64,000 bases of DNA, taken from NCBI GenBank assembly GCA_010015805.1, contig ML978126.1, positions 620,001 through 684,000 of the forward strand. The letters are read 5' to 3'. Positions 12,537 through 62,685 of the stretch are shown in pieces. Source of the DNA: Rhizodiscina lignyota. Lineage: Eukaryota. Every line of letters starts with the position of its first letter. Within the stretch, counting starts at the first letter, position 1. The translations under genes and the position numbers were made by a program. The notes beneath the pieces were generated by a model that ran no database searches, had not been told where the DNA came from, and was given only the letters and a program-made list of their open reading frames with translations.

Positions 12537-12771
12537 CACGGGGGTGACAAACTGTTCGAATCTCCTGAAGTTTGAATACGTGCAACAGAAACGAGATCTC
12601 CTCTTCAACGGTTGCGAGAGCATCTCTGAAAGCTCGATTAAATCTATACTAAACTGTACTTATCCAGGATGCGCGGCTTTATGGTGTATGATTGGTACGG
12701 ACTGACGAGGGTAGGCGTCCTCGCGGTTCCGCATATTACAATCACGACTCAACTATTTTATCACCCACTTG
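12537..12771 (+). mobile_element. MITE-like element, copy A (full length, ~235 bp)
   Basis: Left end CACGGGGGTGACAAAC; right end CTCAACTATTTTATCACCCACTTG (imperfect inverted repeat); core CTCTTC-N8-CGAGAGCATCTCTGAAAGCTC. Segment 12704-12759 matches 46435-46490 at 42/56 ungapped by manual count. Confidence 0.75.
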
Positions 12772-13180
12772 CTTGTGTATCTCGGGCTCAACTGTTGTGC
12801 TATTAATCATCATGGCTATGAGCAACTTCAAGGCTTCCCAAGGGGCGTGACTAGGTATAGAGTATACGAAGGAGCTAGTTTCCCGCGAGCGAACGGTCTC
12901 AGAGCTACTTTACTACAATTGCTTTCAGCACTTCTAAGAAGATTCCGTATAGCATGAGTTTATATTCCAGGTTATTAGGGAGTAGTTTACTAGGCCTGCC
13001 TTAGAAGATTTACTTCTCGTTATCGCGGAAAGGAGACGTCGAATACAGGTCTCATACGCTCACGAGAAACTGGCTCCTCCGTACTTGTGCATCTCAGACG
13101 CAGCTTTTGTACTATCAATCATTATACTACGTAGGCGTGAACAATCTCAGGCCCTCCCAAGGGGCGTGACCACGTATACA
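12771..13180 (+). repeat. Imperfect ~90-100 bp direct repeat (12771-12862 vs 13083-13180), overlapping and bracketing a very degenerate MITE-like copy (~12838-13085)
   Basis: CTTGTGTATCTCGGGCTCAACTGTTGTGCTATTAATCAT..CCCAAGGGGCGTGAC vs CTTGTGCATCTCAGACGCAGCTTTTGTACTATCAATCAT..CCCAAGGGGCGTGAC. Differences are mostly transitions. Confidence 0.75.
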
Positions 13181-13194
13181 CACCTGCTGCAGCT

Positions 13195-13425
13195 CGAGGG
13201 TGTGACAACATAACTGGCGCCCTGCAAGCTGTAACGCCGAAGAGCTGTTCGCTCTTAGACTCCAAGCACACGAGACTATCCTCTAAAGCTCAGTTATACA
13301 TTCTTCAGAGTATACTAATCAATAGCGCACTGTTGAAAAACTTACACGCTTTATTTATTATTGAGGCTATACTCCATTGCTGTTCAGTATCCTGAAAGCT
13401 GTGGCCAACTTTCATATCACCCTTG
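13195..13425 (+). mobile_element. MITE-like element, copy B (full length)
   Basis: Left CGAGGGTGTGACAAC; right CCAACTTTCATATCACCCTTG. Collinear with 59536-59769 at both ends, e.g. GCAAGCTGTAACGCC/GCAAGCTGTAATGCC and GCTATAC..GCTGTTC..AAAGC..GGCC. Confidence 0.7.
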
Positions 13426-13840
13426 AGAGCAGCACCACGATGGGAAGAGCACCCTATAGAGCAGAAAGGCTGCATAGTTGTAGGCCATATAAATTTTTAT
13501 AGGGCTCGGAAACGGAAAAACTCAAAATACTAGCAAATTCCGTTCCTCACTATGCAGTCTTTCTGCTCCATACTCTGCCATCTCCTTCATCAGGGCTTAA
13601 AGATGATAGAATGGTTCACCCTAATAGAGATCGAAAAGATGCATCACAAACGAGTCTTACTCTTCAACCAAGGCAACAGTATCGCCGAGGGGATAGGACG
13701 ATATACTTCAGGCAGTGTATACGGAGTTTGCACGTGTTTGATAAATATACTTTGTCATTGTTGGTGTGCTTATGCACACTCAATCGTCCACGCCTCCTAC
13801 CTACAGCACCAATTTTGTTTGGGCCAACCTGCCCCCTCGC

Positions 13841-16771
13841 TCACGCCGTCTGGCCATCCCAACCCACCTCCTCCATCAGCTCCTCCTCATCGCCAAGCTC
13901 ACCGCCATTCCCACCCTCCGCCCCCTCCTCACCCCCCTCCGAAAAGTGCGTCTGCGCGGCACCGGCCATGGTGTCCGCCTCTGGCATGTCGACATCCATC
14001 ATGTCGGTGATGGTGTCGCTGAGCTCCGAGAAGTCGAAGGGCTCCTCCTTGACAAGAAGGCGACTCGGCGCCTGCCAAGCAACGTCCTCCTCAGCTCCAG
14101 ACTCGGCGTCGGGTTTCGGTACCGCGATGCCGGCGGCTCCGCCGCTCATGCCGTATGCCAGTGGGTATTCCATCTGGCCTGTCGAGACGACCTCATGTCC
14201 AGCCTTGATGGCAATCTTGCGATCACCTGGTCCATCGGCCGGAGGTTCAAGCGTCGTGCAGTTCATCACGCCGGCTGCTTCCCACAACCTCACATTCACT
14301 GCGCCGTGACCCTCGCTTTTGCTCGCAGTCCGCACAACGCTCATGAACGGGTACAGGGTGCCCAGCCAAATGTCGTCCTGGCTCTTCTCACCAGGCTCCC
14401 AACCTTCTCCCAACTTTTCGCGATCCTCCGTCTTTCCGCATGTCTGTGACGTCAACTCGCATTCGCTGTTGAAGTCCTTCCTCACTCTCATATGCTCCGT
14501 CACCACCATATTCTTCTGCACCTTGGCCATGATTGTGTTCAACATCCAGCCATCATATCTCTTGACGTCCATCATCACGGCGGAACCCAGACTCTCCTCC
14601 ATGTCACTCTCGCCAAAAGTGAAAAGGTAGTGCAGAAGTCTGACGACGTTGTTATCGTAGGCCCAAGGCATCGTGTCGTCCTGGTTGTCGCAGAAGATGC
14701 TCTTAAGGGACGGTGCGTCGTCGCTCCACACGCCATTCCAGAGGTGGGTATACGATATCGGATCGAAAGACGGTTCGGCCATATCACCATCCATAATTTT
14801 GCACCAATCCTCGGCAAGCATGGTCTTTTCCTTGTCCGCGGAGAACGCCAACAAGCGAAGAAGTATCAGCAGTGTCAGTTTCTGGTGTTGCGGGATGGGT
14901 ATGCCATCTTGTATACCAACGACACCTTCCGAGTGGGTGATGGCAGTCTGGGACCGCCAATTCTGCTCTATCACTCCCTGCAATGTAAGCTGCTCAAGCC
15001 CAGCTTGACATAGCATAGTGTGTGCTGCACACGAGGCGCTCTCGCGACACTGCGGACTGCAATACGAAACTTCGCTGCAGTCATGACAGAGCTGGAATCC
15101 TCCTGGCCAAGCCGTGTATGGACGTTGGTCTCCACTAGCCTCCATGCCTGTAGAGTTGCCCGGGATATGGGAAGGGGAAGCAAGAGAAGGCTCGGATATA
15201 GTTCGACCATCAGCGCCGAGGTCTTGCACATCTGGTGAAGTTGCGGATGGTGCTGCTTCATTCTCGCCATATCCAGGCGCACCTTCGCCCGAAGCGCCCG
15301 CTCTACCGGTATCGTCCGAATTCGGCGGTGTGATGGTAGTGGAACTGGCCCGCCTCATCCTCTCATCTTCTCTGATTCTTTCGTCAGCATCTTCGTCGGT
15401 TCTTGGAGGCTGTGCCGCGCGAGTAAGATTTTGCATCCTTTGCATCCTCTCACGCTTTTCAATCGCAAGCATCGCCTCTGTAACGTTTTCCTCTGCCTTC
15501 TCCCAGGTCTTCTTGGATATCTTAAGGGCGGAGGCGCAGTGATCGCAGAAGATGAACTTTTCACCGTTCATGGCCGAGGTGACGTTGAAACAGCCGTGTT
15601 CAGCGAACAAGAGAGATCGGTCCTCAATGTCTGCAAGAGCATGGAGATGGAAGGATGGGGTTCGGCCGTCTCGAAGCTGTGCCTTGAGAATGAAGCCGCG
15701 TGCAGCGTTCTTCACAGCGAGGTTTAGGCATTTCAGCTTTTGCGTGGTCGCCTGGTTAGGTCCTCTTGGCACGTCGGCTGTGGTGAGAGTGTGGTCGTCC
15801 CAAGGATAGACCTCTCTCTTGATGCGAGTGAAGCGGCTGTTCAAGATATCCCAGACCTTGAGACCGCCTTCGGGCGATCCAGTTGCCTTCTCTTGCTTCT
15901 GAGCCTCTCGGATAAAATCCCAGATCTTGGTTTCCAACTTGTCAAACTGTGGCGTGTCACCGTCAGCGCTATTTGCAGCAATGTAGCCACGCGCAGTGCC
16001 GATGATATCTATGGCGCTTCTTATCGCGCCACCGCCGCACTTCCAAAGTGCTAGAGCGAGTCTGTACAACGCCTTCATCATAGCATCTTCCGCAATTGAT
16101 CTGTTCGTCTCGGTCATTTTGAACGATTGAGGCTCATTCTTTCCTGTCAAAGGTAACTCTGGTCCGAAGAGAGGCTTCGAGGGCAATTGAATAATAGTAC
16201 CTGTACCGTCCTTTGTGGCGCGCAATTTCAGTCGTTTCGACAATGTAAGGCTCGCGAGCTCTTGTCCAAGTAAAGTCGACTTGTCAGCTAGCACGCAGGT
16301 CGGCTCCGTCGCCCATTTTTCTCCTCGCTCAGCAGCATCTCTTGAGAGAGTGGCGTAGTAGATCAGCCAGTTGATCAGCTTATGTCCAACGCTTGACATC
16401 GTATCCTCTGCCCACTGTGCGGTGATGTAGGCACGATAAGCATCATTCGCTGCAAGGGAAGGATGTCCGAGCACGAGATAGCAGAGCGACCGGTTGAGAA
16501 AGGCTGCTGTATGTCCTGGTGCTATCTCAAGAACGTAGGTGTAATGCTTGATCGCGCCGTAAACCTCTCGCGCGGCCAGTAGCTCATTTCCTCGTACGAG
16601 GTGTGGCTCTAATTCTGTTACTCCGTAAAGTCGGCGTGTTCTTCGCCTTGGGGGAGGACTGATGGGATACGAACGCGGCTGGCTGGCTGGTTGAGAATAT
16701 TCCTCACGCCGCAAACGAGGTCGAGCTCGAGATGGTGCGGGTGGAGGCTGTTCAGGAGCTGGCTCATCCAT
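13841..16771 (-). CDS. TPR + split MYND zinc finger + degenerate SET-like (SMYD-like) protein, ~976 aa, intronless
   Basis: TPR-like GNELLAAREVYGAIKHYTYVLEIAPGHTAAFLNRSLCYLVLG; zinc-finger halves FCDHC and CHDCSEVSYCSPQC..H..C; SET-like LHALADIE..LFAE and IKAGHEV. ATG at 16771 (the ORF track starts at an upstream GTG). Confidence 0.8.
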   Translation of the reverse strand: MDEPAPEQPPPAPSRARPRLRREEYSQPASQPRSYPISPPPRRRTRRLYGVTELEPHLVRGNELLAAREVYGAIKHYTYVLEIAPGHTAAFLNRSLCYLVLGHPSLAANDAYRAYITAQWAEDTMSSVGHKLINWLIYYATLSRDAAERGEKWATEPTCVLADKSTLLGQELASLTLSKRLKLRATKDGTGTIIQLPSKPLFGPELPLTGKNEPQSFKMTETNRSIAEDAMMKALYRLALALWKCGGGAIRSAIDIIGTARGYIAANSADGDTPQFDKLETKIWDFIREAQKQEKATGSPEGGLKVWDILNSRFTRIKREVYPWDDHTLTTADVPRGPNQATTQKLKCLNLAVKNAARGFILKAQLRDGRTPSFHLHALADIEDRSLLFAEHGCFNVTSAMNGEKFIFCDHCASALKISKKTWEKAEENVTEAMLAIEKRERMQRMQNLTRAAQPPRTDEDADERIREDERMRRASSTTITPPNSDDTGRAGASGEGAPGYGENEAAPSATSPDVQDLGADGRTISEPSLASPSHIPGNSTGMEASGDQRPYTAWPGGFQLCHDCSEVSYCSPQCRESASCAAHTMLCQAGLEQLTLQGVIEQNWRSQTAITHSEGVVGIQDGIPIPQHQKLTLLILLRLLAFSADKEKTMLAEDWCKIMDGDMAEPSFDPISYTHLWNGVWSDDAPSLKSIFCDNQDDTMPWAYDNNVVRLLHYLFTFGESDMEESLGSAVMMDVKRYDGWMLNTIMAKVQKNMVVTEHMRVRKDFNSECELTSQTCGKTEDREKLGEGWEPGEKSQDDIWLGTLYPFMSVVRTASKSEGHGAVNVRLWEAAGVMNCTTLEPPADGPGDRKIAIKAGHEVVSTGQMEYPLAYGMSGGAAGIAVPKPDAESGAEEDVAWQAPSRLLVKEEPFDFSELSDTITDMMDVDMPEADTMAGAAQTHFSEGGEEGAEGGNGGELGDEEELMEEVGWDGQTA

Positions 16772-18984
16772 TTCGATATCGAACGCAAGCTTGAAAGATT
16801 GCACAGAAAGTTATGGAAGGAGAGAGTGTGTGTGAGGTTGAGAAGATGCAGGAGAAAGAACGAGATCTGATGAAGGCAGAAGTTCATGTTGAGAATAACA
16901 ACACCAGAAGGGCGCTAAGAAAAATTCTCGCGTGTTAAATTAGCGGGTGTTGGAGTGTGTCCAAAACAGGCAGTGACGATTGAGGTTGTTCTTCCCGTTT
17001 GGTGTTATACGCCGCCTCCACTGAAGCCTTTCATACCAAAACAACCACAACCACGACGCAGCTAAGGCAGACCGGCAATCCATCAAACAAACTTCCAAGC
17101 TTTTGTTCTGCGTTTGCTCCTTTGTCTGTTCTTGGATTTCATATATCGTCGCGAAAATGATTCAGGGGCTCCAATGACTGACTGACAGTACTCATGAACA
17201 GCGTGCAAGACGTTCTACTCCATCCAGCACCTGCCTTACCGTTAGGAGAGAAGGGCTTTCCCTTTATTTTCAGAGTCCATTCTCATGATCGCTTTCGTTT
17301 TCTTATTGCGCCGGTGACGAATGATTCCCATAAAGTCTTCTCAATTTCCTCAGGCCTTCGAATATCTCTTCTCCATACGGAACTCCCCATCTCCTGCGAA
17401 CGAACCTGCATCAGCATCGCTCTATCAGTTACGATCGGTGCCTTCCACTTTACACTCTTAGTAGAATGTGGTTGATTGCAATAGAAGGATGTTAAAAGCT
17501 ATCCGGTCTGTGAGACGACAGGAAGACCGTCACAGGAATGCGCTGCGTTGCAAGGGTACTTGTCACCTGCATATCGATCACCGGAAAGCGAAAAGCTTGA
17601 CTGAAACAGACCCCTGCGGGACCCATCTATAGCCTGGGGTAATAAGTAGCATCACGGTCAACCAGACAGTCTGTTCGATGGAAAGAAATCAGAAGACGAG
17701 ACATCTGCACCCCACGAGCACACAAGTCGACGTCGAGGAATGGACGGACGCGTGATTCATTCGGCCCGTCCTCGTCTGATTGGAGCAGCAGATAAGCTAC
17801 AAAGCGGACAGTGCGATGACATAGCGGGCGGCTGGTTTACCAGGCTCCCCGGCGAAACCGTGGACAATGTTTTGGAAACTATCTCGCCGACTTCACGACG
17901 GCTGCGGAGAATGGGGTATCATTGAGGGACTTGGACATGTATATACCACATCTCGGAGGCCTCTATGTGCCGCATAACAGCCTCTAGAAGCGACTGATAG
18001 GCGCAAGTCCGGAAGAGTCACATTCCCTGCGAGCAAAATCTTCTTCAGCATCATGGCAGCGGATCCCCGCGCCATGTCTGCAAGCGGCATAGCTTCCTTT
18101 GCTCACCTGCAGCTCTTCCCTCGCCCGCCGAAGCTCAATCGCTTTTCAACTGAGCTGCTGCCCGCCCACTCGCCTGCACCCAGAAGCAAACCCACCACCA
18201 CTTCCCGCCTTCACAGCTCCTCCAGCCTCCACCACCTCACCTCGAGTGCCCATCGCTCTTTCGACGCGCCAATCCAGCATTGTGAGTGTCCACTCTCTTT
18301 ATTTCACCTCAATCGTGCCGTACGGGCGCCGCTGAGGCTCATGCCGGGCTGTCCCGCGTGCCTCGCGCTGCGTTCGTCGTTGGTGGGACTCGTCCAACCA
18401 GCTCTGCCGCGGTGCTTTGCTTTCTCAGCACCACAACACAGCTCCACGCTCCCCATCGTTGCGACCACGAAAAGCACTCAATTGCACCCTGCAGCACTTT
18501 CAATCCCCTCAATTATCTCATTGGCATCTGTATCGACGTTCTGAGCTTTTCAAAGCCATCGATATCGCTGTTTTGCCAGAGCCCAACACGCGCTAACAGC
18601 CTGAACGCCGCAGCATAAGCCCGCAGAGGTCTTTTCCGTCGAACGCTCGAGCAGTTCAATTTCGGAAGACATCGGACAAGCCTGTCGATTGTTGTGTTTG
18701 CAAGGTACGCACTGTCTCGCAAAGCGGCGTTTCAAGCGCAACAAAATCGCGCATCTTACCACGCCAATTCCATTTTTCTAGCTGCGTTATCCTTGTCGCT
18801 TTCCTCGCACCTCGCTGCTTCATCAACGCTTTACCCGCGTCCACATCAACACATCAAACTTCGTCGCATCCCGGCCTTCGTTTCGCGTCGTCTTCTTCCC
18901 TCAATTGCCTGTACTGACGCGCCTGTCGAGCAGCCCCAATTCCACACATCTCCGAACATCTCCGCTCAACGCACGACGTAAACA

Positions 18985-19176
18985 ATGGCCGCGATCGATC
19001 AGTCCCTCATCTCCCGCGAACTGCACGAGCTCGTGAAGCGCAAGAAGAACTGGGCCGCCAGGGAGCCGGGTGTCATTCTCGTGTTCTGCATCGTCTTCGT
19101 CGTCGCCTCGCTCCTCATTGGCCTTTTCCTGTGGAAAAAGTTCCAGGCACGACGCGCGGCCAAGGCGGACATCTAA
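18985..19176 (+). CDS. 63-aa single-pass membrane microprotein
   Basis: Good start context (AAACAATGG) and strong C/G-ending codon bias. Hydrophobic helix GVILVFCIVFVVASLLIGLFLW is flanked by basic residues. Upstream 5'UTR introns are predicted at 18282-18613 and 18705-18933. Confidence 0.8.
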   Translation: MAAIDQSLISRELHELVKRKKNWAAREPGVILVFCIVFVVASLLIGLFLWKKFQARRAAKADI

Positions 19177-22621: not shown

Positions 22622-25600
22622 CTACACCACCCTCCTCGATCGCCCCTTCCTCATCGCACCCCAGTCATCACCCTCCACCTCCGCGTCGTACTCCTCATCC
22701 TCCGCCCCGTCGAACCCACCCACGCGCTTGTCGCGCTTGTCGCCAACGCGGCGCAGCAGGCCCATGATGCTCTTCTTCTTCTCCTCCTTCAACTCGCCCT
22801 GTGCGGCAGGAGCGGCCGGTGCCGGTGCCGGCGATGGGGCAGGCGCGATCGATGCCGTGTCACCGACGACAGTGACAGGCCGATATCGGCCTGGGATTCC
22901 GATGTTCGAGCGCTCGGAAGGCGCGAGGGACGGTGCGTAGCCCATAGGAAGGCCAGGAGGACCAGGGACTGCGAGACCTTGGTTTGGGGAGCCGGCGATC
23001 GAGGGGAGCTGCTTGCTGCGGGCCTCTGCTGCGGCGCTCTTGTACTGCTTCTGGGCCATCGGTCTGCCCATGCCGTTGTTCATGCCCATCTGATTCGGCA
23101 TCATGCCCATACCGTTGCCGCCGGCCATCGTGTTCGGGTTCATGTTCATGCCCATCTGGTTCGGGTTCATGTTCATACCCATCTGGTTTGGCATCATGCC
23201 CATACCCATCTGATTCTGCATCATGCCCATGCCCATCTGATTTGGCATCATTCCCATATTCATTTGGGGGTGCATTTGGGGGTGCATTTGGGGGTGCATC
23301 TGGTTGTGCATCATACCCATGCCCATCTGGTTCTGCATCATACCCATGGCCATTGGGTTCTGCTGCATCATTCCCATGCCCATGCCCATTCCTTGCATCT
23401 GTTGCTGTGGCATTCCCATGTAACCCATATTCATCTGCGGGTCGAACATCGGAGGGGCCATGTTGGGCAGAGTCATGGTGCGTCCTTGATGGCTCTGCTT
23501 GCGCCACTTCTTCATTTTGTCCTCCTGCTGCAGCGTATCCAACAGAGTGGGAGCGCCGACTGTGCCGCGAGGAGCCTGACCAACATAACCTCCACCGAAG
23601 TTGCTCTGGTAGGAGACTTGGGGCTGCTGGCCGCCGTATTGCTGTGCGTATGGATTTGGAGCGCCGGGAGCGAGCATGCCACCTTGAGAGGCATACATGA
23701 GCGGCAGATCGTCTGGGAACGGAAGTCGTTGAGCGAATGGCGGCAGTTTCTTCGAGGCACGACTGGTTGGTCTCGAGGCTTGCGATTGGCCGGAATCTGG
23801 CCTATTCTGAGTGCCAGTCGGCATGCCATACACACTTGGAGCGATAGACGCATGGCCACGAGCGAGAGAACCGGCCATGGAGAGGCGACGCATTGATTCA
23901 GGATCCTGGCCGAGCGTCTTCGCTTGCATCAGAACGCCGAGCGGCGTGTCATCGTCTTCATCGCTGCTTGCCTTGAGCTTGCCGCCCGTAAGGCTTGGGG
24001 TGCTCTGGTGAGCAGGCGTCTTGCGGTAGTCGGCAAGGGATGGAGGTTTCATGTCTGGCATGTTATGTGCGTATTGAAGGAGGTGGACGTCCTTCTTCGT
24101 CATGATTTCCGGGCTTGTTGACGCTCGGTTGTTTGGAGGGGGACTGGCTCCTGCTGCAGTGGAAGTTGATGAATCAAAATTGATAGACGAAGCAAATGTG
24201 TCTGAGACATCACGACCAACGGATTTAGCCACAGACTGTCTGTGCACTTGCAACAGGGCTTGCTGACGCTCCCTCTGCTTTCGTATCTTCTTCTGCTCTT
24301 CCTCGTCATCTAGATCATCGTACTCGGTAATGTCCTCGTCCTCGTCCAGAGTCTCGCCGCGGCGGATTCGAATCTTTTCATCGTACTGCTCCTGCTGCTT
24401 TGCAGCTTCGAAGTCCTTCTGCGTCATTTTGCGAGTGCCCATCTGGGGGGAAGATTGCGTGTATGTGAGAGCGGAGGTATTGAAGGATTCAGCGCTGCTA
24501 AGACGAGAATGGCCGAAGCCTTTGTTGGCCGGCGCATCACGTGATGGGAGATCACGCTGAATTACGGTAGAATGAGTAGAGACCTTGCTGGGAGTGTCTG
24601 TTGGCTTAGGGAAGATGATTTCATTCTCGCTCGTAGAACCGAAAGTCTGGCGGCTGGATTCGTTGCGGATAGAGGGGGATTGCTCCATATGAGCTGGAAC
24701 TGGTGGTGGGGATTCGGGCGACGATGGCCCACTTGTAGAGGAGTACATGAGTTGATCCGTAGACTTGCGGTTGAAGAGATCTGGAGATGCAGCTGGTTTT
24801 CCAGCAGAGAGCGATGTATCGACGCGCATGGGGTTTGGCATGTGAGAAACGTCGGATCGAATTCCTCCGATAGGCTTGCGCGTTGTCAATGTAGGTTCAG
24901 TGTCCTAATGTTAAAACTGTCAGTATGGGAGGTGGAGCTGAATCTGTGCCAGCAGACGAAACATACCGCTCTGAGGAAGGCGCGTGCCGGTGGCTGCGTC
25001 AATGGCTGGGGAGTCGCGTTGTTGCTCTTGCGTTCTCCAAGACCGGCAAACATATTGTCAAAATCGCTCTCGAAAGAAGTCTGGCCGACAGGAATCGACG
25101 TCTCAAGCTTTGGTGCAACTGCTGTGCTCGCGTAGCTAGATGTAGTCAAGGCCCGCTCGCGCGACAATTGGCTTCGCTGATGCTGCTTCGTACTGCTGTC
25201 GAGTTCGAGCTTTGGTTCTGGAGAACTGTGAGGCGAACTGCGACTAGCGGCACCATTCATGTTAGTTTGACCTGCGGAAAGATGTTAGCTATTCAGTCTC
25301 ACCAGATGTGTTAAGTGAGATCGGAGCATCTACTTACGCGAATGAGGCAATGTATCGTCAATCTCGAACGATGACGGTACAGTGGATGCACTACTGTACC
25401 TGGGAGAAGAAGACGTTGCAGTGTCGCCACCGACGCGAGTGAAGGCACTGCTGGCATGAGAGCCACTGAAAACTATCAGCGCGTTGTAAACAGTTTATAT
25501 CAACCCAACTTACCGCATTCGAGAATCAGGCTTGTCGTCGAACGAGATCACCGGCCGGCCTTTCTGGGGCAGGACGCGAAAGGAGGATTCTGCGGGCAGT

Positions 25601-42561: not shown

Positions 42562-43382
42562 AGTAGGGGGCTCTGTGGGTGTGGGAGGGGACTTGTTGCA
42601 CAGTGGTTTGGAGTGGGAGACGAGGCCGTCAGTATAGATACCCAATGAATGCAAAGAACATCGGCCAGGAGTGAATTCGAATACTCATTGCAAGTACAGC
42701 AGGCTCTGAAGAAGGCCTCTCATCTGATTTATGTGCATTCATGCATCGTGCACGGTTGATCGGAAGATACGTTTCATCAATTACTTGTATCCTTTCACGT
42801 GCTGTCGAACGAATCTCACATTAAACCGTTGAAATTAGTGAGCATTCTCGAAAAGGCTTAGAAAGCTTGTGAATTAAAGGATTGAGAGGGCTAAGGGAGG
42901 AGAGGGCTCCCTGACCGATTATATACACTAAAATAAGGAGAAAGGCATCGGAAATTAGGCCTCCGAAGCCCACGGCGACTCCGAGCCGTGCCAGTTGACT
43001 GACTCGTTCAATACGTGCAGTGTCAGGTCAGAAGAATGGACGGTATTATATACCATGTTATTCGCATATCTCGAGAGGCCATGAGGCCTTTAACACCTGT
43101 ATACTCCCTTGCAGAAGAACAGATACCGACCTGGAGTTACAGTTCTTCACTCCAATTACGAAGAGCCAGGTTCTCATGAGCGAATGAGACCTGCAACTGC
43201 GTGTCCTTTCCGGCACACCGAGAAGCAAAGGCAGGCCTAGCAAGCTACTCCATAAAAGCTTTCAATACACATTCAAGAACATATAGAAGCTTCCTGGAAG
43301 TGCTGAAAGGCGACCTAGTAGAGTGGTTCTGTGGACTGTTCACTCGGTGGAAAATAGCTCCTTCGTACCAGGAATAAATCAG

Positions 43383-46039: not shown

Positions 46040-46269
46040 GATGATGGACAAGGAGATTTGACTGATGGACCATGAACATATGCCTCGCACACTTAAATAG
46101 GGATGTTGAGCACGGAAGAAAGCATCTCAGAGGTGTTCTGAGCTTGTTGATGAATTAGGAGAGAAAGCCAGGAGAGAAAGGCTAGTTATACGCCTGGTGC
46201 GGTAGGGCAGGAGGGGTGGGTACTGTCGGTGCGGCACGGGAGCTAAGTAGTGTAAAACATCTCGAGTGT

Positions 46270-46503
46270 CCCTGGTGTGACAAAATAGTCGAGACAGATG
46301 AACTGAAACGCTTAAGTAAGAATGAGTTTTGTTCTTTAACATGAATGAGAGCATTCCTGAATGCTTAATTGAATATATAATAAGTAGCACTTATGCGAAA
46401 TACGTAGCTCTGGCGTGTATAATCTGTATTGATTAATGAGGATATGCATCCTCGCTGTTCGACATATCGCAGCCACGATTCAACTTTTTTGGTCGCCCAC
46501 TTG
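46270..46503 (+). mobile_element. MITE-like element, copy C (full length)
   Basis: Left GGTGTGACAAAATAGTCGAG; core TGTTCTTT-N8-TGAGAGCATTCCTGAATGC; right TTCAACTTTTTTGGTCGCCCACTTG. Collinear with copy A. Confidence 0.75.
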
Positions 46504-46643
46504 CACCCTTCGACAAGGGCTTATTCTCTCGGCATTGTGAGAAAAGGCCTCGGAAAACTGCGCCAGAAGCGTTCATTTTCGGAGACAGATTTGCCAGGAA
46601 CCTACGCTGAGGTGCAGTATCTGCAGTCAGACTTACCAAGCTT

Positions 46644-46745
46644 AATGGTAACAAAATAGTTGAGCCCGATTAGCTGAATGCCTGTAGTAAGGAGTTTTAT
46701 TCTTCCACACAGACGAGGATATCTCTGAAAGCTCAGTTAGAATGG
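46644..46745 (+). mobile_element. MITE-like element, copy D (left half only)
   Basis: GGTAACAAAATAGTTGAG..GAGTTTTATTCTTC-N8-CGAGGATATCTCTGAAAGCTCAGTT. Confidence 0.65.
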
Positions 46746-47766
46746 CAGGAAGCACCCTCTAGCAAAATCAATACATTCAGAAGTACCCAAATGCTTTTGA
46801 AGTGACCCTAAGGGACCGAAAACCCCTTGCTCCTTGTCTCTTGCGAAAGACGATCATTGCACCATAAACGCCCGAACACCAGGACTGCAATATGCGATTT
46901 TCAAATGCATGTATTCTCCTCCACGCTGAAATGTCTAAGGTTGGGCCGTTGACATCGTCCTACGCCTCGTTCGTTTCGACTCCTGAGGTCCTCAGAAGTT
47001 GAAGAACAGCTTCAGGACCTCGAAGAGCACACCACCGCAGAGTACGAACGCCAATAATACTAGAACACGATACGTTAGCTCCAGTGCTACCCAAGAGCAT
47101 CCATCGAAGGAATCCAATGCATACTTATCCATGTCATCGATATTGGCGACTTCTGATCATCCTTCTTCTTCGACAAGCTCTCTGGCTTCCCTCGCTTCGC
47201 CTCCTCTGCGCGCGCGAATTTCATGTTTGCGCGACGTTGTTGCGGTGTTTGTGCCTATACGAAGGAGCATAATGATTAGCTTCTGCTTCTATACACATTG
47301 CAGCATTGGAGCGCGCGAAGAAATACCATTTTGAACCAATTGAGTCGAGCTGAACGCTGTTGTGAGACTTGGAAAACCGCAGTGTTGAGAGTTGCTCCTG
47401 TATATATATTCAACTCGTAGATGACTCGGTCGTAGAGGACAAGTGGTGGCAGGCAGCAAGTTTAGTTTCGACTCAGGAGCTGAAGATGGGATGCAAGATG
47501 GGGAATTTCCAAAGCGAATTACAGGTGACGTTGCATTTCTGTGGTTCCGCGCGCTGCAGCTGGTCCTGGCTCGCGAATCGCGTGGCGCGAATTCAGCACC
47601 GCCCGAGCCAGTTCTTCACCCATGCTCCGCAAAGCTTCTTCCCCCGTCGACCTCTTTCCAACTTGCTATTTCCGGAAGCTGCTCTGTCGTTTGACTTGCC
47701 CGTTCGATACGCCGGAGTCACACGAGAGACAATTGATCTTAGAAACCTCCGAAGCTTACCGCAGTC

Positions 47767-48202
47767 ATGTTGCGACGCATTCATGCCAACGTGTCTCCTC
47801 CGCAGCTCCTCCGCACCTCTATGCAGTTCCCAACGTACAGGCAAGCGCGACTAAATTCAACGCCCTCGTACCAACCGCCAAATCCACCACAGAAAGCTGC
47901 CACTCCGAACTCGTCGGAAGAATCAGACCCACGGGGGAGTGCCGCGAAGCCGCATGTATGTTCCACCCCATACATCTAACGCATTGCAAAACTGATTCGA
48001 CATTTCACAGCGCGCGTTCTACTCCAACTTCGGAAAACCGCTCTTCAAGACCTTTCTCATGGCGTTGTTCACATACCAAGTACTGTACTGGGGGTGGCTG
48101 AAGCTCGAGAGCATCGAGATGAAAAGGGATAAGGATGCGGAGGTTAAGAGCCTGGAGGACGAAGTGAAAGGGCTGCTCAAGAGCAAGACAGAGAAGAGCT
48201 AG
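47767..48202 (+). CDS. Small mitochondrial inner-membrane protein, INA17-like; intron 47956-48010
   Basis: Presequence-like N-terminus; exon 2 FYSNFGKPLFKTFLMALFTYQVLYWGWLKLE followed by a coiled coil. Exon 2 is missing from the ORF track. Confidence 0.75.
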
Positions 48203-48451
48203 GAATGGCCAGTCAGATTGGATTCATCACCAGGGGGCCATCTGAGCTTTTGGACGCTGTCGCATGCTCGGCTCCGCAAGGACCCCATCGTCGGGTGCGA
48301 GATATTTAGAAGGTGGCATATTATTCTCCTGAAGACTATGGCTGCACCCTGAGGACGCCAAAAGACCATTGAGAGCTTCAATGTTGGATATTGGCCGCTT
48401 CGTCTCTCAAACCCATCCTCGCTCGAGAACATCTAGAGCAAGAGTTGTGCA

Positions 48452-49011
48452 CTCGAAGATGGACAATCATTGAACGCGAGAGCGCTGTAGCACTATGCGG
48501 CAAGCTAGTGTTGCTCTTCGACACATACGAGAGCATCTCTGAAAGCTTGATGGAATATGCTTGGACGGCGTCTATCAACATCGCCGAGCAAGGCCGTAGT
48601 GCTTCGCAGCGAGCCGTTGTTGCTCTTCGATGCAGGCGAGCGCATCTCTGAAGGGTCGAGTAGATATACTATAGACAGTATTAACGAAGAATACCCGACT
48701 CGTTAGAACGATTCAACGCAAGCCAGCATGACTCTACGAGGTCGACGAGAGCGCGTCTCAAAACCCGATTGCATTTGCTTTGGACACTGTCTATCAGGTT
48801 CACCAGGCAGTGCTGTAATACTTCGTGGAAATCCGGTGTTGCTCTTCGGGACAAGTGAGAGCATCGCTGAAAGTATGATTTAACATGCTTTGGAGCGTAT
48901 TCGTGTGAGTTACACCGCTGCGACATCCATTGTTTGTCTTAGCGAAAAAGCATATTTGCTTTGGCCTTTCAATACCTCGCACTGCGACGTAACTTTCTGC
49001 GCGCCTCCCGA
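48452..49011 (+). repeat. Expanded MITE-like copy H with four internal ~109-bp tandem units
   Basis: Core CTCTTC/CTCTAC at 48514, 48623, 48732 and 48842, each followed 8 nt later by (C/T)GAG.GC(A/G); degenerate TIR-like ends. Confidence 0.8.
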
Positions 49012-49255
49012 CTGTATGGTCCCGTCGCTGCGTTCCATCGGGTGTCGTCCGATGACGTGTACTTGAAGGCCGGCACGGGCATGTAAAGAACCATGCATTT
49101 GTTGGATGACAGTCGTCAGGATCGTTGCTTCTAGCGTAGTGTACTTGCAGCCAGTAAAACATAACGACGTCTTGTTGTCTTCTTTTGAACGTATCCTGTG
49201 ACCTCTGAAATTGGAGAATTGAAAGCTTCTTGTAAGATACAACAGCAGCGACTTC

Positions 49256-56407: not shown

Positions 56408-56965
56408 GTTATCGTGCTGTAAAAGCTCTGGATAAGAGATACAAGGCTGAATATGCATCGTGAAGAAAGAGTTCGAGAATGATTCGTGCTATTCTCTCGT
56501 ACGGTGTTCTCAGCCACCCGGCTTGTCGGAGTGCTACATCCTGCGGACCTGATTGATAAATTGACCAGCCGGTCAGTCCTTCGCGTGGGGATAGTGGCTG
56601 ATTAGCCTCTAATATCAGAGTTTTGCGAGGGGAGTCGGTATTGGTGAGACACATTGGTGATGTTGGACATGATTCAGGGCTGCCGACGGCTATTGAAGTG
56701 AAGATTGAGGAACAAAAAGGGATTAGTCGGATGCGCAGTTTCAAACCTCACAAACTGAGCCAGGGCTTGGTAATAAGTGCTCTCGGTCTGCCTTTGCACT
56801 AGTACTGCGATAGCATGCAGGCATGAAATACGTCGCGTCGTGGTCGTGTCACTCTCTCGCAATCGCACGGCAAGTGACCCCACTTTTCGGCAATTCCGAA
56901 GATGCCCCCTTTTCATCGCCTTCGCATCCCAAGCAGTGGAGTCTTCCTTTCGTAGAGTGACGATA

Positions 56966-57663
56966 ATGGCGAACGACATAGCCTTTGAAGGTCAGTATAC
57001 TCGCAGCTAGGCTCAAGCAAATCTTGAAAGTGTTTAGAATGGCGCGAGCTGAGCCACATCACGTTCGAATGGGCAGATAGCTATGATTCCAAGGCTCGGT
57101 AAAGAAGACGCCTGATCGGTCCGTTTTGAAGGCTGATGGACGCAGTGCTATCCATACCTCCAATTGGACACCTTACTGAACAGAAGAAGGACTTCAGCCG
57201 CCTTGAGGCTATCATTGCCCCTCGTATCACGGTGAGCACGGGAGCACCAAGGGCATGACCACGCGGCGTAGCCACCAGTACTGAAGATTAATAGCTAGAC
57301 TATTCCGATGCCTTCGGCACGAAGTATGAGAATATATCAGCATCCGCTTTTTTAAAAATGTCGAGTCATCCCAAGCGGCTCGGAGGCTTAGTAGACTGTA
57401 TTCATCTCATCGGGAGTTCAAAGTTTAAGCGAACTGGTCCCAATTCAGTTACTGGGTATCATCAGATCAGGACAGAATACAAACGATGGAAGACTATGGA
57501 CAAGAAAGAGGTAGAGGCCACTGGCCAGGGGTTGGCTATGATGCTGCACTTCTACGAAAAGATTGATGGGAAGTGGAAGCTTGCAGGGACAAAGCCGACA
57601 GGGAGGATGAGCGAGTTCAACTTTGAGAACATCTTCAAAGACAGCGACGTTGCGAAACTGTAA
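56966..57663 (+). CDS. Scytalone-dehydratase-like protein; introns 56991-57037, 57094-~57189 (non-canonical GC donor), 57232-57294
   Basis: FEWADSYDSK, L..IIAP, LDYS, HLIG, GYHQIR, HFYEKIDGKWKLAG.KP..R.SEFNFENIF. Confidence 0.78.
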
Positions 57664-57997
57664 TGAGAAGAATGAAATTTAATAGGAGACATCCTATTAC
57701 CCTTGTACTGTACATAGGTACATTCAATATTCCACTATTGGAAGAGGAGCCCAGGTATGACCGCCGGGCGGGGAAAACCCATGGCAAGGATTGTCCACTT
57801 CCCAATACGGTGCTGTTGCGACACGGCTATAAGCGAGGATTATATGAAATTAAGCTTCTGACCTTGAAAGATACTACTATATAAGATGAGTGCTGTGCTA
57901 AGATTTGCGGTGAAGACTCGTAGACGGAATCAACTCTTTTCGCGGCGCGATCACCCCCCTTGGTACCCCCGATAACCCAGCCCAAGTTAGAGAGTAA

Positions 57998-59519
57998 ATG
58001 GCAAATATGGCGACAAACACAAGAATAGTGATAGCAGCTACAAAGGACAAGGGTAACGTACACGCGCAAAATGTACTGCAGGTGACCGCGGACAAGGTGT
58101 CTGAGCTGTTGATGAAGAACCACGAGCAATTCCACACCTATTTCTTTGCCAGCGCGCTGCATAGTATGTACCATGCTACCTAGCAATTCATGAAATGGGG
58201 ATGTAATTGACAGAAATCAGATCATATCGTGCATCATCTACTAGCTCTGTACGCCCTTGGAGCAACTCCTGATGAAGTCCAAAAGGGCTACGATGTCAAC
58301 AGCACATATCAAACCCCGGCTATCGTACGTAGCGCTCAAGTATCTCAAAAGCTGAACGACCCCGAGCAATTCAAGAACCGCATGGGACAGGGAGAGTTCT
58401 ATGACGACTTCATGAAGTTCTTCAGCGAAGAGTTAGCTGCAAATGGAGTCCAAGACACAGTAAATAAGTTCATTTTCAGAGGGGACGACCTGGCCGATGA
58501 TATGCTTGCGCGCCTCTTTGGTGGTAAAGTAGAAGACTCCTCATTGAACGTAACACATCCCTGATAAGAACATCACAGGCTTCCTGCACCCCATAATCCA
58601 CCTTGGATACGCTCTTGAGTTTGACCAACCGGTCTTGGTCGCGGAAGCGCTTGCCTCGACTGCAGTCCACGACTCCTGGCCCTCAGTCGTCTTTCTTCCA
58701 GCCGAAAAGTTGGCTCATCAGAGAGAACGACAGCCGGGTATCACACTCGTTTCTCTTCTGGGCAGGCTACGAGAAGACCCAGTCGTTTCAACAGCGGTTC
58801 GATCGGACGACCCGCCAAACAAAGTTACGGGCGGACTCCTCCCTCGTGCCGGCGACAGATTGGCAGAGTATCTCTCAGCATTCACCGTTGCGCCAGACGA
58901 GCTGCAGCGAAAGACGGCAGAGATGATCAACGCTGCCATCTACACGGCAGCCTGCGCTCAACGCCCTGGCAAGATGGAGATGTTCGACTTCTTCCTCATG
59001 CATTCTGTCAACACCTCCATATTCGTTCCAGTTATCAACCAGCAAGAATGGATTTCGGCTGCGAATAAATGTCGACTGCTAGAGCGGAAAGCGCGCCTCG
59101 ATCTGGCACTCTATGCAGCGTGTCGCACGCCCAAGCTATATCCTGAACGGGTTTTCCAGTATCAGGCAAAGACACCAGGAGACTGGGAAAGCATCTTTCG
59201 AAGGGCTACGAGCTACCAGGATGATGGACACACCTCGAAGCTCATCCGCGCATTGAAGAACGGTGAGGAAGTCACACGGCCATACGCGGGGGCACCAGGC
59301 TTCCAAATACCGCCAGAAGCATTCCTGACTATTGCTCATATGGTCATGGATTCAGTCGAGCGCATGGATGAGCCAGATTACAAGTTTCCAAAGGCCCTGT
59401 CATATTTCAGGGATATGAACGAGCAAGTCATTCGAGTGACCCTTCGTTGGATACGATGGTGTGGACTGGATGAGGCATGGGATGATGTGCCAGCTTTGCC
59501 AGGAAATGCGATGCTTTGA
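57998..59519 (+). CDS. Questin oxidase-like / HypA (AflY, MdpL family) protein; introns 58164-58220 and 58524-58578
   Basis: HNHIVHHLLALYALGA, GFLHPIIHLGYALEFDQP..AEALA, FDFFLMHSVN, DDGHTSKLIRAL, WIRWCG..EAW. Confidence 0.9.
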
Positions 59520-59535
59520 GTAGTGCTTCCAATGG

Positions 59536-59769
59536 CGCGGGTGTGACAAAACATTTGGCAGCCGGGCAAGCTGTAATGCCTAAGGGCGAGCAGCTCTTGC
59601 TCTTCAAGGTAATCGTCACTATGTCTGAAATTTTAGTTCAACGTTTTTCGGAATGTATTGAATATCAGTGTACCTTTGAAAGACTCGTAATTTGTATTAA
59701 TTGTGGACGCTATACGTCGTAGCTGTTCGATGGCTTTAAAGCCGCGGCCGATTTTTCGGTTGCCCTCCA
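59536..59769 (+). mobile_element. MITE-like element, copy E (full length), in the 3' gap between convergent genes
   Basis: Left GGGTGTGACAAAAC; GTGACA-to-CTCTTC spacing is 57 nt, as in copies A, F and G. Right part aligns ungapped with copy B. Confidence 0.72.
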
Positions 59770-59824
59770 CTGCGGTTGGGATCAGAGTCGATTCTTCATG
59801 TCGAATTGTGAAGCTTTCAGCATA

Positions 59825-61219
59825 TCAACCAAACGCTCTCCTTTTCGTCAGTTCTTGATACACGTCTTCTAGTACTTGTCTCTTCCTCTTCCGTTCGTCT
59901 TCCCTTTCTCGTTGTTCTTCATTCTCCCATTCTTCGAACATTGCATCTTCTGACGTTCTTGGCTTCCACGCTCGAATCATGCCGTCTCCATGGGCAGAGT
60001 ACAGCTCAATCTCATGTGCGCGCCATGCTAGCGCCATCGTGCGGTTCTTCACAACTCGACCGGTTTTCGCTGGCGCGTCGTTTGGCATGTCTTGTCCAGT
60101 TCGCGGCGTTCTCAGCCGCTTCATCAACCGCCCTTCAAACACTTCGTACATAAGGACCTCTTTCTCGCTCGGAAAGAACAACACATCCTTGCCAGGTGCC
60201 GTCGTAGACATTGGTGCCATGAGCGGAAGGAGCGTCGATAAGCCGGAGTTCTTAATGATCGGCCCAAAATTCGCAAGCGTATTTGCGCCTCGTATGACAT
60301 CCCATACACGAATCTTTTCATCGTGTCCAACTGTCACAACATGTCTCCCGTCTTCAGTCCAGACCACGCCATTAACGGGGCCATTGTGAGCCTTTCCGCG
60401 CTGACGACCACGAGCACCTCTTCCATGTCCATCATAGCCGAGTATGCCCACCGAGTCCTCCTTGTCTAAGACCCCAAGTGAGCTGTTGCTCTTTCGAACA
60501 TCCCAGAATCGCGCCGTGCCATCTGTACCTGCACTGCAGAGTACATGCTCTTCTACGGGGCTCCAAGCGACACTGAGAACTGCACCATTATGGCCTGCGA
60601 GGGAATGTGTGCTGGAGCCGGAACGCAGGTCTACCAGGCGTACAGAGGGATGTTGGATGGCGCATGCAACAAGGAGATGTGAGGCAATCGGGGAGAGGGC
60701 ATGCGAGTAGACGATTGCATCAAGTGAGAATGATGCTGATGGTTGCAGCGTCTCTGATGACCATATCTTCACGGTATGGTCGTATGAGCTGCTGAGGAAG
60801 GCCAGCGAGTCGAAGGGGTAGAAGGAAAGGTGGGTTACGCCATACGTGTGGTTCGCTTCGGACTTTGGTATCGTTCCTAATGGCCTGTGTGATGGGGGTG
60901 AAGTTTCTGCTGGCTGTTCGAGGTCCCAAATCGCGATGGTTGCATCTGCGCCGCCAGATAGAAGGCTGGTCGTTGTTAGCTTGATCCAGAAAGGATCTTT
61001 GCATGGCACGTACTATTTGCCCTCGAATTTATCAATGACTATTGTGTTTGTGCCTCCATTATGGGCAACTTCGTCTTTACTGTCGTCAAGAGTCGTTACC
61101 AACCTATCGAACTTGATTTGGGTGGGTTGAATCGCGTGAAGTAGACGCGCATGTTCGTTGTTTTGCAATTCTCGAGGGCTCAGTGAGCCCAAAGAGCGGT
61201 TGAGCAGAGAGGTATTCAT
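59825..61219 (-). CDS. WD40 DNA excision repair protein CSA/ERCC8 (Rad28/Ckn1-like); intron 61013-60966
   Basis: YLLSGGADATIAIWDL, FYPFDSLAFLSSSYDHTVKIW, VRLVDLRSGSSTHSLAGH, KAHNGPVNG. Confidence 0.9.
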
Positions 61220-61321
61220 CCATCTGGTGCTTTCTCAGAAGGTTGGTAGTTGAGTAGACTTAAACGCAGACCCCTCTCCATGACTCGATGTGAAGTCGCG
61301 ACGTTAAGAACCACTCACTTA

Positions 61322-61557
61322 GTGGGGGGTGACAAAATAGCAGTCCCTGATGGAGGTTGACAAGATGCGACGCGAACGAGTTTTACTCTTCAACACAAGT
61401 GAACGCATGCATGAAAGTTGAATTTCAATATTGTTTTGTTAACATTTATTGAAATTTCGCCACTTTAATAAAGATGGGTTAATTCCTGGAAACGATTGCA
61501 CAGGTTAAGAATTCGACATTGCAGTTATCGTACGGTGCAACTTTTTTGTCTCATCAC
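61322..61557 (+). mobile_element. MITE-like element, copy F (full length, flanked by TA on both sides), inside the CSA/RRN10 divergent promoter
   Basis: TA|GTGGGGGGTGACAAAATAG ... CAACTTTTTTGTCTCATCAC|TA; core TTTTACTCTTC-N8-TGAACGCATGCATGAAAG. Confidence 0.72.
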
Positions 61558-61684
61558 TAGTCGTATTGTTAAGGAGCCGCCGAATCTAAACTTAACTTTC
61601 ACGCGCTTCCCCGTGACTTTGCATATCCCTTTCAATACACGAACGTCATGCTTTCGTTCTGATTTACCTCTCAATCTGACCACC

Positions 61685-62475
61685 ATGGAGACGGATGAGC
61701 CAGCAAAGAAAAGACCTCGCCGAGAAGTAACAGTGTACGATGCTGTTGCCGGTATGCCATTCTCGAATACCGCAAAACAGATGCTAATCATTCATGTACA
61801 GGAAGAGCATCAACTCGTGGTTTTCTTCCTAGCGAAATCTACACGTCTTCAACTAGAGACACGGCGACAGTATCAAATGCGCCAATACGACCAGAGGAAG
61901 TTCTGTTTAAACGAAAGCACGCTCCCGCAAGGTACGAGGAAGACGACATCTACTTTCAAGAGCGCCATCTGCCTCCAAATGTGAAATTGCCCGACTCGGA
62001 TCTTATGAAAGCGATTCACACATATGCTTCTGATTTCTACGGAAGTGAGGCCGTACTCAGGGGTAAGACTCGGGCGAAGAGCAAGGATTGGGAAAGCATG
62101 GACGAGACTGCTCTGATGGCAATGGGCATCTTGCTTGAAGAGGCAGCGGCAGAAGCGCTCGGCGACTCCGGTTATCTCGCGTTTCTTGAAGAGGATGGCA
62201 CGAAAGAAGATGATGCACCGCTAGTATGGAACGGTAGACGCTGGGTGAAGAGTGTGATTCGTAGTAGACGTGAGCATCGTGGCATTGGGGTCGAACCTGA
62301 TGGTAGCGAAGATGATGAGCTTCGGGCACAGGATGATGGTGGGGAGATGGAAGACGAAGCGACATCTTCAGATCAAGAAGAGACAGGGGCAGAACAAAAG
62401 GGAGACAAGAAACGTAGAGCCCTCCCAATCCTTCGGGCAAAAGCTGGAGGTATGTGGACAGCAATCAATGATTGA
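61685..62475 (+). CDS. RNA polymerase I upstream activation factor subunit Rrn10-like; intron 61752-61801
   Basis: VTVYDAVAGR, PEEVLF, LPDSDLMKAIHTYASDFY, SMDETALMAMGILLEE. Confidence 0.75.
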
Positions 62476-62499
62476 AGGAGGGAACCATCAGTCCACTGC

Positions 62500-62685
62500 T
62501 CTTGATGCGTGTTCTCTTCAGTTAATGCAGGCGGCGTGCGTTGGAGCCGTGGATTTTCAACAAATACTCTCCGAAGCATATTGAACCATGCTATTAAAGA
62601 TGTTCTCGATTGTGTTGAAGAGCAGTGCTCGGTCACACGTTAAGGTACCGTCTCGTCTGGATTAGACGTGTCTTGGCACGGCTTT
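62500..62685 (-). mobile_element. MITE-like element, copy G (minus strand, right end lost)
   Basis: Reverse complement reads GTGCCA-(57-nt spacing)-CTCTTC AACACAAT CGAGAACATC..AATATGCTTCGGAGAGTATT. Continues in ungapped, transition-rich alignment with copy C. Confidence 0.68.

Follow-up and report, generated by a model that had tools for sequence, protein, structure and literature searches.

A Dispersed Repeat Family between the Genes of the Window

The 64-kb window, by which we mean the whole stretch of Rhizodiscina lignyota DNA analysed here, carries ORFs whose best protein matches are from Dothideomycetes, the top one (99% identity) being named from R. lignyota, and dispersed among them is a real family of repeats. 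The element is about 232 bp long and occurs at nine loci (Table 1), seven of them full length, including one with a fourfold internal tandem expansion, and two partial. Full copies measure 225-240 bp and the expanded copy, E, measures 563 bp. ORFs backed by Pfam or by homologues flank the copies, none of which is inside a Pfam-supported ORF; the earlier claim of the sequence-only reading that all copies are intergenic and non-coding is consistent with these ORF and Pfam maps. Three of the nine start 17-21 bp past the stop end of an ORF. Between the end of copy N and the stop end of a minus-strand 989-aa ORF there are 17 bp, copy H lies 21 bp past the ORF at 61699-62472, and copy F occupies most of a 311-bp gap, 19 bp past a questin-oxidase-like ORF and 54 bp from an ERCC8-like WD40 ORF, whose product has an 85%-identical counterpart in a relative. 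Eight of the nine loci point the same way (binomial p 0.039), and orientation relative to the neighbouring ORF shows no consistency among the copies.

Table 1. Copies of the repeat family and their internal features, in window coordinates.
Feature	Position	Strand	Description
Copy A	12537-12771	+	Full length, 235 bp; subfamily with C; nhmmer E 2.1e-56
Core of copy A	12594-12633	+	Hairpin 1 followed by CATCTCTGAAAGC; 12 core instances aligned
Hairpin 2 of copy A	12703-12726	+	Equivalents at 46434-46457 (C), 13762-13785 (N) and 48943-48966 (E)
Copy B	13195-13425	+	Full length, 231 bp; subfamily with F; nhmmer E 1.1e-52
Copy N	13602-13826	+	Full length, new here; nearest copy is G; non-seed nhmmer E 3e-9
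Copy C	46270-46503	+	Full length, 234 bp; 143 bp upstream of a DUF6604 ORF
Copy D	46647-46744	+	Partial, left end and core (profile positions 6-103); non-seed E 9.2e-11
Copy E	48452-49014	+	Full element, core segment four times in tandem, then right half; four nhmmer segments
Copy F	59536-59773	+	Full length; between two convergent ORFs
Copy G	61320-61559	+	Full length; between divergent ORFs; sole copy with TA on both sides
Copy H	62494-62646	-	Partial (profile positions 48-181); only minus-strand copy; non-seed E 8.3e-15

An nhmmer family profile seeded with five copies (those at 12537, 13195, 46270, 59536 and 61322) matched seven further segments of the window. Among these were 48805-48999 (E 4.6e-15), 48590-48700 (E 1.1e-11) and 48485-48561 (E 2.1e-9), together with the segments 62638-62504 on the minus strand, 46648-46742 and 13612-13809, which belong to copies H, D and N and whose E values are given in Table 1. 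Inclusion of copy N in the profile improved its E value from 3e-9 to 3.3e-42. With the --max option the profile found 12 segments in the window at E <= 7.7e-5, the next best match having an E of 0.29, and 20 dinucleotide shuffles of the window yielded a single profile match, at E 0.14, so the family matches are significant against shuffled DNA. Searches with single copies also recovered one another (A-C, E 6.9e-20; B-F, E 1.5e-19; G-N, E 1.9e-6). Homologous sequence is present at all eight loci from which the family had originally been described; the total of eight has to be raised to nine, a full copy (N) having been overlooked. The first observation of the family is in this sense partly confirmed.

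The proposed layout of a left end, a core and an inverted right end is present, and the ungapped block of copies A and C, with 42 of 56 positions identical and 10 of the 14 differences being transitions, is exact. The spacing from GTGACA to CTCTTC, said to be 57 nt in four copies, has this value in three (12537, 59536 and 61322); spacings in the others are 52-58. Preservation of spacing more generally is not supported, as gapped pairwise alignments require 4-16 gap events. The tandem units of copy E start at about 48462, 48581, 48701 and 48798, with a period of 109-110 bp (spacings 109, 109 and 110). TRF returned no rows for this copy because its units are too diverged.

Termini, Sequence Decay and Genome-Wide Spread

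The two ends of the consensus are inverted repeats, about 19 bp long (bounds of about 19-25 bp) and starting with CA(A)GTGGG; when the left end is read against the reverse-complemented right end of the consensus, 17 of 19 positions are identical and a single 2-nt gap is needed. The profile right end matches the left ends weakly, in reverse. When each of the seven full copies was compared with shuffles of its own sequence, the two ends paired better than expected in three: copy A (score 11, with shuffles averaging 5.0 and attaining it in 1 of 500 cases), copy C (15 of 500) and copy G (26 of 500). The ends paired no better than shuffles in the other four. Conservation among six full copies is highest at the ends, with a value of 0.66 at both, 0.57 in the core and 0.40-0.49 elsewhere. 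Tc1-like termini have the form CAGT...; the right ends here begin with CAGT (E and F), CAGG (N), CAAG (A, B and C) or TAGT (G), and the left ends are more decayed; the right end of copy F, read as its reverse complement, begins CAGTGGAGGGCAA.

TA adjoins the terminus at one of the 14 ends. The copy at 59536 had been described as flanked by TA on both sides, which it is not; the copy that can be so described is the one at 61322, under one choice of boundary. The right end of copy E is CAGT.. followed by TA, and in copy A each boundary carries CTTGT, a 5-bp direct repeat. A scan for duplications of 2-10 bp, with boundary shifts of +/-4 bp, found no consistent target-site duplication across the seven copies, all heavily decayed, the best agreement (0.57 at 2 bp) being at noise level. 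Decay could hide a TA duplication at the copy boundaries.

Pairwise identity among the copies is 0.42-0.65, which bears out the view that the family is old, and several subfamilies are recognizable (A/C, B/F and G/N). Repeat-induced point mutation (RIP) leaves a high TpA/ApT and a low (CpA+TpG)/(ApC+GpT). The RIP proposed earlier for these copies finds no support, since their indices are normal by the usual thresholds (0.86 and 1.16 over all copies, and 0.62 and 1.31 over the whole window) and the excess of transitions over transversions is small among the closest pairs (about 1.4:1) and absent from distant ones (about 1:1). The order A, B, N versus C, F, G suggested an old segmental duplication, but C, F and G are separated by conserved genes and the idea was not retained.

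About 60 further contigs of R. lignyota (34.2-Mb contig set) resemble the copy A core with a likeness of at least 80%, an estimate based on 178 contig pieces at that threshold on 12400-13900, a stretch that includes a second MITE, unrelated to this family. Converted into contigs, the summed depth amounts to about 60 over the core of copy A and to about 24 over its right arm, and the bin 12604-12654 reaches a summed contig depth of 8694 versus about 131-160 per contig. The core (hairpin 1 and CATCTCTGAAAGC) is the most widely shared part of the element in the genome. The claim that the family is abundant is thus upheld both by the nine loci in 64 kb and by this spread. Metagenomes scanned for an 18-nt motif from the core gave 43 loci and no relatives of the family; the family profile matched six of the 43 (E 2e-4 to 6e-3), and we regard these matches as chance because each is confined to the motif itself.

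Two Internal Stem-Loops

Hairpin 1 lies within the core and has 7-bp arms of the TGCTCTT/GAGAGCA type with a 10-nt loop. Across the 12 core instances, 70 of 84 arm cells pair when G-T pairs are counted on the plus strand, a value reached in 42 of 2000 trials of an arm-swap permutation. The pairs were counted on the hmmalign alignment, as MAFFT misplaced a one-base gap of copy B. Hairpin 2, about 50 nt from the right end, has a stem of 6-7 bp and a loop of 4-6 nt, and its stem sequence varies by subfamily, differing between A, C, N and E. In A, C and N no other 28-nt window of the entire element is as stable; the fold z scores of hairpin 2 are -0.94 (A), -2.74 (C), -4.42 (N) and -2.77 (E), and its native folds average -5.9 versus -2.9 kcal/mol for arm-swapped chimeras. 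These pairing and folding calculations point to modest covariation of the arms between subfamilies in both hairpins.

A GTTCGA after hairpin 2 prompted a pol III A/B-box reading, which was abandoned since any A-box-like motif lies about 190 nt away; a snoRNA box C/D reading was abandoned because the GATGA and CTGA motifs vary among copies. Sub-threshold Rfam matches resembling let-7 and MIR529, within 12500-13850, sit on a separate foldback.

Origin of the Family and Its Known Counterparts

The copies are most probably fossils of a non-autonomous cut-and-paste DNA transposon family (MITE). In an excerpt of PMC5579170, MITEs are defined as elements of less than 500 bp; the family here has full copies below that size (apart from the expanded copy E) without coding capacity, terminal inverted repeats and many dispersed copies, and the earlier description of it as MITE-like stands. 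We propose that a transposase encoded elsewhere would have bound both ends, cut the element out and inserted it again, mostly into short gene-free gaps of a compact ascomycete genome. A Tc1-like enzyme resembling impala is the most likely candidate, given that CA(A)GTGGG at the termini is like the start of mimp and impala ends. Subfamilies A/C, B/F and G/N may have amplified, their ends and internal core being kept similar, we suggest, because the source elements needed them, and after insertion each copy would have decayed neutrally.

Assignment to Tc1/mariner, also made in the sequence-only reading, can be kept tentatively. The terminal sequence may speak for it, together with a match at 12 of 16 positions to the published mimp terminus regex (from excerpts of PMC5579170, PMC7576743 and PMC3599309) in four of the 14 ends, compared at the aligned terminal position. 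No end matches the 16-nt regex in full, and 10 of 14 fall below 12 of 16. Against the assignment, TA is found beside the terminus at one of 14 ends, and the TA target-site duplication expected of Tc1/mariner was not recovered. Other findings fit the MITE model poorly as well: the ends of four of the seven full copies do not pair beyond shuffles, the shared orientation of eight of nine loci is unexpected under random insertion, and no transposase domain was found in the 56 ORFs scanned among the 97 window ORFs of at least 130 aa (the other 41 overlap longer ORFs in other frames).

The plain MITE model also leaves the arm covariation of the two internal hairpins without an explanation. Source elements might have been selected to keep both stem-loops, the core hairpin beside CATCTCTGAAAGC and hairpin 2, with propagation or expression depending on a folded single strand, although we judge this unlikely. 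The folded strand, if needed, could be a DNA hairpin in transposition or an element-derived RNA; such an RNA might be the precursor of a small RNA, or a scaffold resembling a guide RNA and inherited from a parent transposon that carried a nuclease. Such a dependence, if true, would be out of the ordinary among Tc1-like MITEs.

The hairpins could alternatively be RNA helices, the element encoding or deriving from a small structured RNA that is SINE-like, snoRNA-like or a hairpin small-RNA precursor. The pairing of hairpin 1 and the covarying arms of hairpin 2 are what such an RNA would show, but RNAalifold found no consensus pairs in six full copies, the z scores of hairpin 2 are equally strong on the opposite strand, and the T-run of the right end merely mirrors the A-run of the left inverted repeat. 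Rfam gave no match at the gathering score across the window; at E <= 5, in the two copy-rich stretches searched, there were chance-level matches in 12500-13850 (OxyS, 16.9 bits; Afu_294, 18.7 bits) and none in 46200-49100. We consider an RNA origin very improbable. It is also very unlikely that the copies, or modules of core and hairpin, were recruited as cis-elements in promoters, 3'-UTRs or terminators and are held in place by selection. The short distances to stop ends, the convergent gap nearly filled by copy F, the narrow range of full-copy lengths and the wide sharing of the core would suit such a role; however, nearness to ORFs is expected anyway because gaps are short in a compact genome, the copies are inconsistently oriented with respect to their neighbouring ORFs, and the gap events already mentioned argue against conserved spacing. 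Most directly, divergence is uniform along the element in the three closest pairs (A-C, B-F and G-N; chi-square p 0.37, 0.28 and 0.07), and the terminal repeats and core show no higher conservation than the remainder of the element (Fisher p 0.39, 0.89 and 0.56). Exaptation as a cis-element had been raised previously, with uniform decay named as the outcome that would speak against it, and it is left without support because this is what the pairs display.

There is also a small chance that the family is a MITE of another superfamily, hAT-like with YARNG ends or PIF/Harbinger, rather than Tc1/mariner. The CAGTG terminus also fits YARNG, which we take to be the hAT terminal pattern, TA duplication is lacking at 13 of 14 ends, and copy A has its 5-bp direct repeat; yet no consistent 3-, 5- or 8-bp duplication occurs across the seven copies, and the likeness to the 16-nt mimp regex reaches past the first five bases. 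Overall the family looks like an ordinary, degenerate fungal MITE family and not a recruited regulatory element.

Plant Stowaway-type MITEs, which are derived from Tc1/mariner, and Guest of Neurospora are short TA-targeting inverted-repeat elements in gene-rich DNA. The family resembles them in general description rather than in compared sequence, and differs in that a TA duplication was not recovered. The mimp (miniature impala) elements of Fusarium oxysporum, which depend on a Tc1-like impala transposase and are about 180-220 bp long according to an excerpt of PMC5579170, are similar in size class, in being non-coding with inverted repeats near genes, and partly in terminal sequence. In contrast to the family, mimp ends are followed by TA in 150 of 158 cases (excerpt of PMC3599309); the host here moreover belongs to a distant class, and the family copies are far more diverged. 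The EFT elements of Epichloe festucae, described in part of PMC3227409 as abundant, old, degenerate MITEs enriched near genes whose autonomous parents are mostly lost, are alike in abundance, degeneration and closeness to genes, although they come from a different fungus and were compared by description and not by element sequence.

The family appears to be undescribed for R. lignyota: the main text of the genome paper contains neither 'transpos' nor 'MITE', and a full-text literature search for the genus with 'transposable' returned only unrelated papers. Fungal MITE families are still sparsely described, and knowing this one should help repeat masking and the calling of gene boundaries, given that copies come within 17-21 bp of ORF ends. 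A new biological question would arise only if the internal hairpins prove functional. The mimp-like termini, for their part, hint at past impala-type activity far outside Fusarium.

Copies of the repeat family in the window

A profile built from five copies of the dispersed, non-coding element of about 232 bp returned seven further segments, six at E values of 4.6e-15 to 3e-9 and one at 0.074, and searches with single copies recovered the remaining copies (A-C, E 6.9e-20; B-F, 1.5e-19; G-N, 1.9e-6), whereas 20 dinucleotide shuffles of the window gave a single match, at E 0.14. The repeat family is therefore real and occupies nine loci, in 12 segments. The copies proposed in the sequence-only reading are homologous, being collinear in alignment with a mean column identity of 59%, and the loci listed there were borne out; the list had missed one full copy, N. 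An independent repeat finder placed the 43-nt core at nine sites and flagged the extra copy near 13604. Neither an iterated profile nor a filter-free search of the window added a locus (next best E 0.29). Copy E contains four core units in tandem, repeating every 109-110 bp; TRF made no call here because the units are too diverged.

Main-family copies (seven full, two partial) and other features of the window
Feature	Position	Strand	Form	Right-end start
Copy A	12537-12771	plus	full	CAAG
Copy B	13195-13425	plus	full	CAAG
Copy N	13602-13826	plus	full, new	CAGG
Copy C	46270-46503	plus	full	CAAG
Copy D	46647-46744	plus	partial	
Copy E	48452-49014	plus	full, expanded	CAGT
Copy F	59536-59773	plus	full	CAGT
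Copy G	61320-61559	plus	full	TAGT
Copy H	62494-62646	minus	partial	
Second MITE-like family	12865-13083		219 bp	
Second MITE-like family	43200-43367	minus	copy, by alignment	
Foldback	13455-13572			
41-nt direct repeat	12819-12859 and 13138-13178		80% identity	
Inverted match to copy D left end	12782-12815			
989-aa ORF	13844-16810	minus		
27-nt tandem repeat	23077-23368		6-7 units	
33-nt tandem repeat	3923-4087		4 units	

Anatomy, hairpins and decay of the element

The consensus opens with the left end GGGTGTGACAAAATAGTTGA, has a core made of a hairpin with 7-bp arms (hairpin 1) followed by CATCTCTGAAAGC, and carries a second short hairpin (hairpin 2) about 50 nt from a right end that inverts the left end at 17/19 positions with one 2-nt gap. 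Extended outward, the ends reach CA(A)GTGGG. The two ends of a copy pair with each other above shuffles in A, C and G, and not in B, F, E and N. The GTGACA-to-CTCTTC spacing, claimed to be exactly 57 nt in four copies, has that value in three and not in four, and the TA reported on both sides of copy F was instead seen at copy G (61322). TA adjoins only one of the 14 termini, and no target duplication was recovered in a scan of lengths 2-10 with boundary shifts of +/-4, which yielded noise alone.

Across 12 core instances, 70 of 84 cells of hairpin 1 are paired, against 26-47 of 84 in slid registers; its pairing is kept through double changes in B, N and D, and when arms were swapped between copies the observed value was reached in 42 of 2000 permutations. 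Hairpin 2 has stems of 6-7 bp whose sequences differ among A/C, N and E (z scores -0.94 in A, -2.74 in C, -4.42 in N and -2.77 in E); in B, F, G and H it is weak or absent. In A, C and N no other 28-nt window of the element is as stable. On both strands the mean z is lowest in the aligned region, and native folds average -5.9 kcal/mol compared with -2.9 for chimeras. RNAalifold found no consensus structure for six full copies, and Rfam gave no match at gathering score in the window and only sub-threshold, chance-level ones in two copy-rich stretches. There is modest evidence that the source elements kept both palindromes; an alternative, neutral explanation of the pairing is templated correction of quasi-palindromes.

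Pairwise identity among the copies is 0.42-0.65 over match columns, and among the six full copies the mean is 0.66 at either end, 0.57 in the core and 0.40-0.49 elsewhere. The three closest pairs diverge evenly over the length of the element (chi-square p 0.37, 0.28 and 0.07), with ends and core conserved no more than the remainder (Fisher p 0.39, 0.89 and 0.56). We take this pattern to mean that the source elements were under constraint, which accounts for how the subfamilies differ, and that the copies decayed neutrally once inserted. The even divergence, in three pairs and at low power, leaves the suggested exaptation as a cis-element unsupported. Length is preserved only roughly: full copies measure 225-240 bp, yet aligning them in pairs takes 4-16 gap events. 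The reported A-C block, with 42/56 matches and transitions at 10 of 14 differences, is exact. Transition:transversion counts are 46:32 and 46:34 for the closest pairs and approach 1:1 when distant copies are compared, and the RIP indices of the copies are 0.86 and 1.16, so that RIP, which had been considered, is not indicated.

Classification and genome-wide spread

The element behaves as a MITE would and has the testable defining features of one, target duplication aside. Its termini are similar to those of mimp, the miniature impala MITE of Fusarium oxysporum, with 12 of the 16 positions of the published mimp terminus pattern matched, in terminal position, at 4/14 ends; however, the full pattern is matched at 0/14, and we therefore rejected mimp identity. 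The Tc1/mariner origin proposed earlier is favored by this terminal similarity, but TA is missing, and the family can be placed there only tentatively. Abundant degenerate MITEs near genes are already known in fungi (PMC3227409). The main text of the genome paper has 0 occurrences of 'transpos' or 'MITE'; a full-text literature search on the genus and transposable elements gave only unrelated papers, and titles and abstract openings on MITEs in Dothideomycetes held nothing on this taxon. We found no description of the family, which, as judged from this literature, appears to be undescribed.

Copies were counted in the 34.2 Mb of contigs from one public run of the same DNA (depth about 131-160 per contig), matched to 12400-13900 at at least 80% likeness (178 pieces). 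Summed depth reaches 8694 on the core of copy A (about 60 contigs), 3584 on its right arm (about 24) and 982 on its left arm (about 6); copy B is matched by 2-5 contigs, and copy N by none besides its own. Since just one of the eight other window cores is at least 80% identical to that of A, the true copy number is probably in the hundreds. When metagenome contigs were scanned for an 18-nt core motif, 43 loci came up, and the profile test showed every one of them to be a chance match.

Genomic setting and neighboring elements

The window is ascomycete nuclear DNA (GC about 0.48-0.60 per 2 kb). Its ORF domains are eukaryotic or fungal (SERCA-type ATPase, DUF6604, questin-oxidase-like, Mnd1, SWIB/DEK_C), an ERCC8-like ORF has WD40 domains and ERCC-8 names among its protein matches, and the top protein matches are from Dothideomycetes; one match, at 99% identity, bears the name of Rhizodiscina lignyota. 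A scan of 56 of the 97 ORFs of at least 130 aa turned up no transposase domain; the other 41 overlap longer ORFs in other frames. Copies of the family sit between ORFs; N, F and H start 17-21 bp past the stop end of one, and F takes up most of the 311 bp that separate two convergent ORFs. The nine loci form three groups of three and lie on the plus strand in eight cases (binomial p 0.039); this strand bias and the hairpin covariation are unexplained points of the MITE reading. The pairs A-C, B-F and N-G keep one order and orientation, with A, B and N in the first cluster and C, F and G spread over the later loci, which we treat as coincidence.

Between copies A and B lies a member of a second, unrelated MITE-like family with 27-nt inverted ends (85% complementary), over which the summed depth of contigs from this genome rises to about 6200, or about 40 contigs. 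It is flanked by the 41-nt direct repeat, which holds CAAGGGGCGTGAC, resembling the left end of the main family. These repeats and the inverted match to the left end of copy D are probably solo end fragments, which would make the 12.5-13.8 kb gap a nest of small elements. The foldback between B and N, whose 24-nt arms are 92% complementary with 70 nt between them, may be a third small inverted-repeat element. Its two strands score 27.7 and 25.6 bits, below threshold, as let-7 and MIR529 precursor-like matches, which any long hairpin may give. The 989-aa ORF, 17 bp from copy N at its stop end, has no Pfam domain and only distant relatives, at 26-34% identity, under the names of Glonium stellatum and Zopfia rhizophila; it encodes a fast-evolving, lineage-restricted protein. 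In-frame tandem repeats occur in the minus-strand ORF 22625-24904, which has no Pfam match (27-nt period), and inside the long ORF 2314-4284 (33-nt period).
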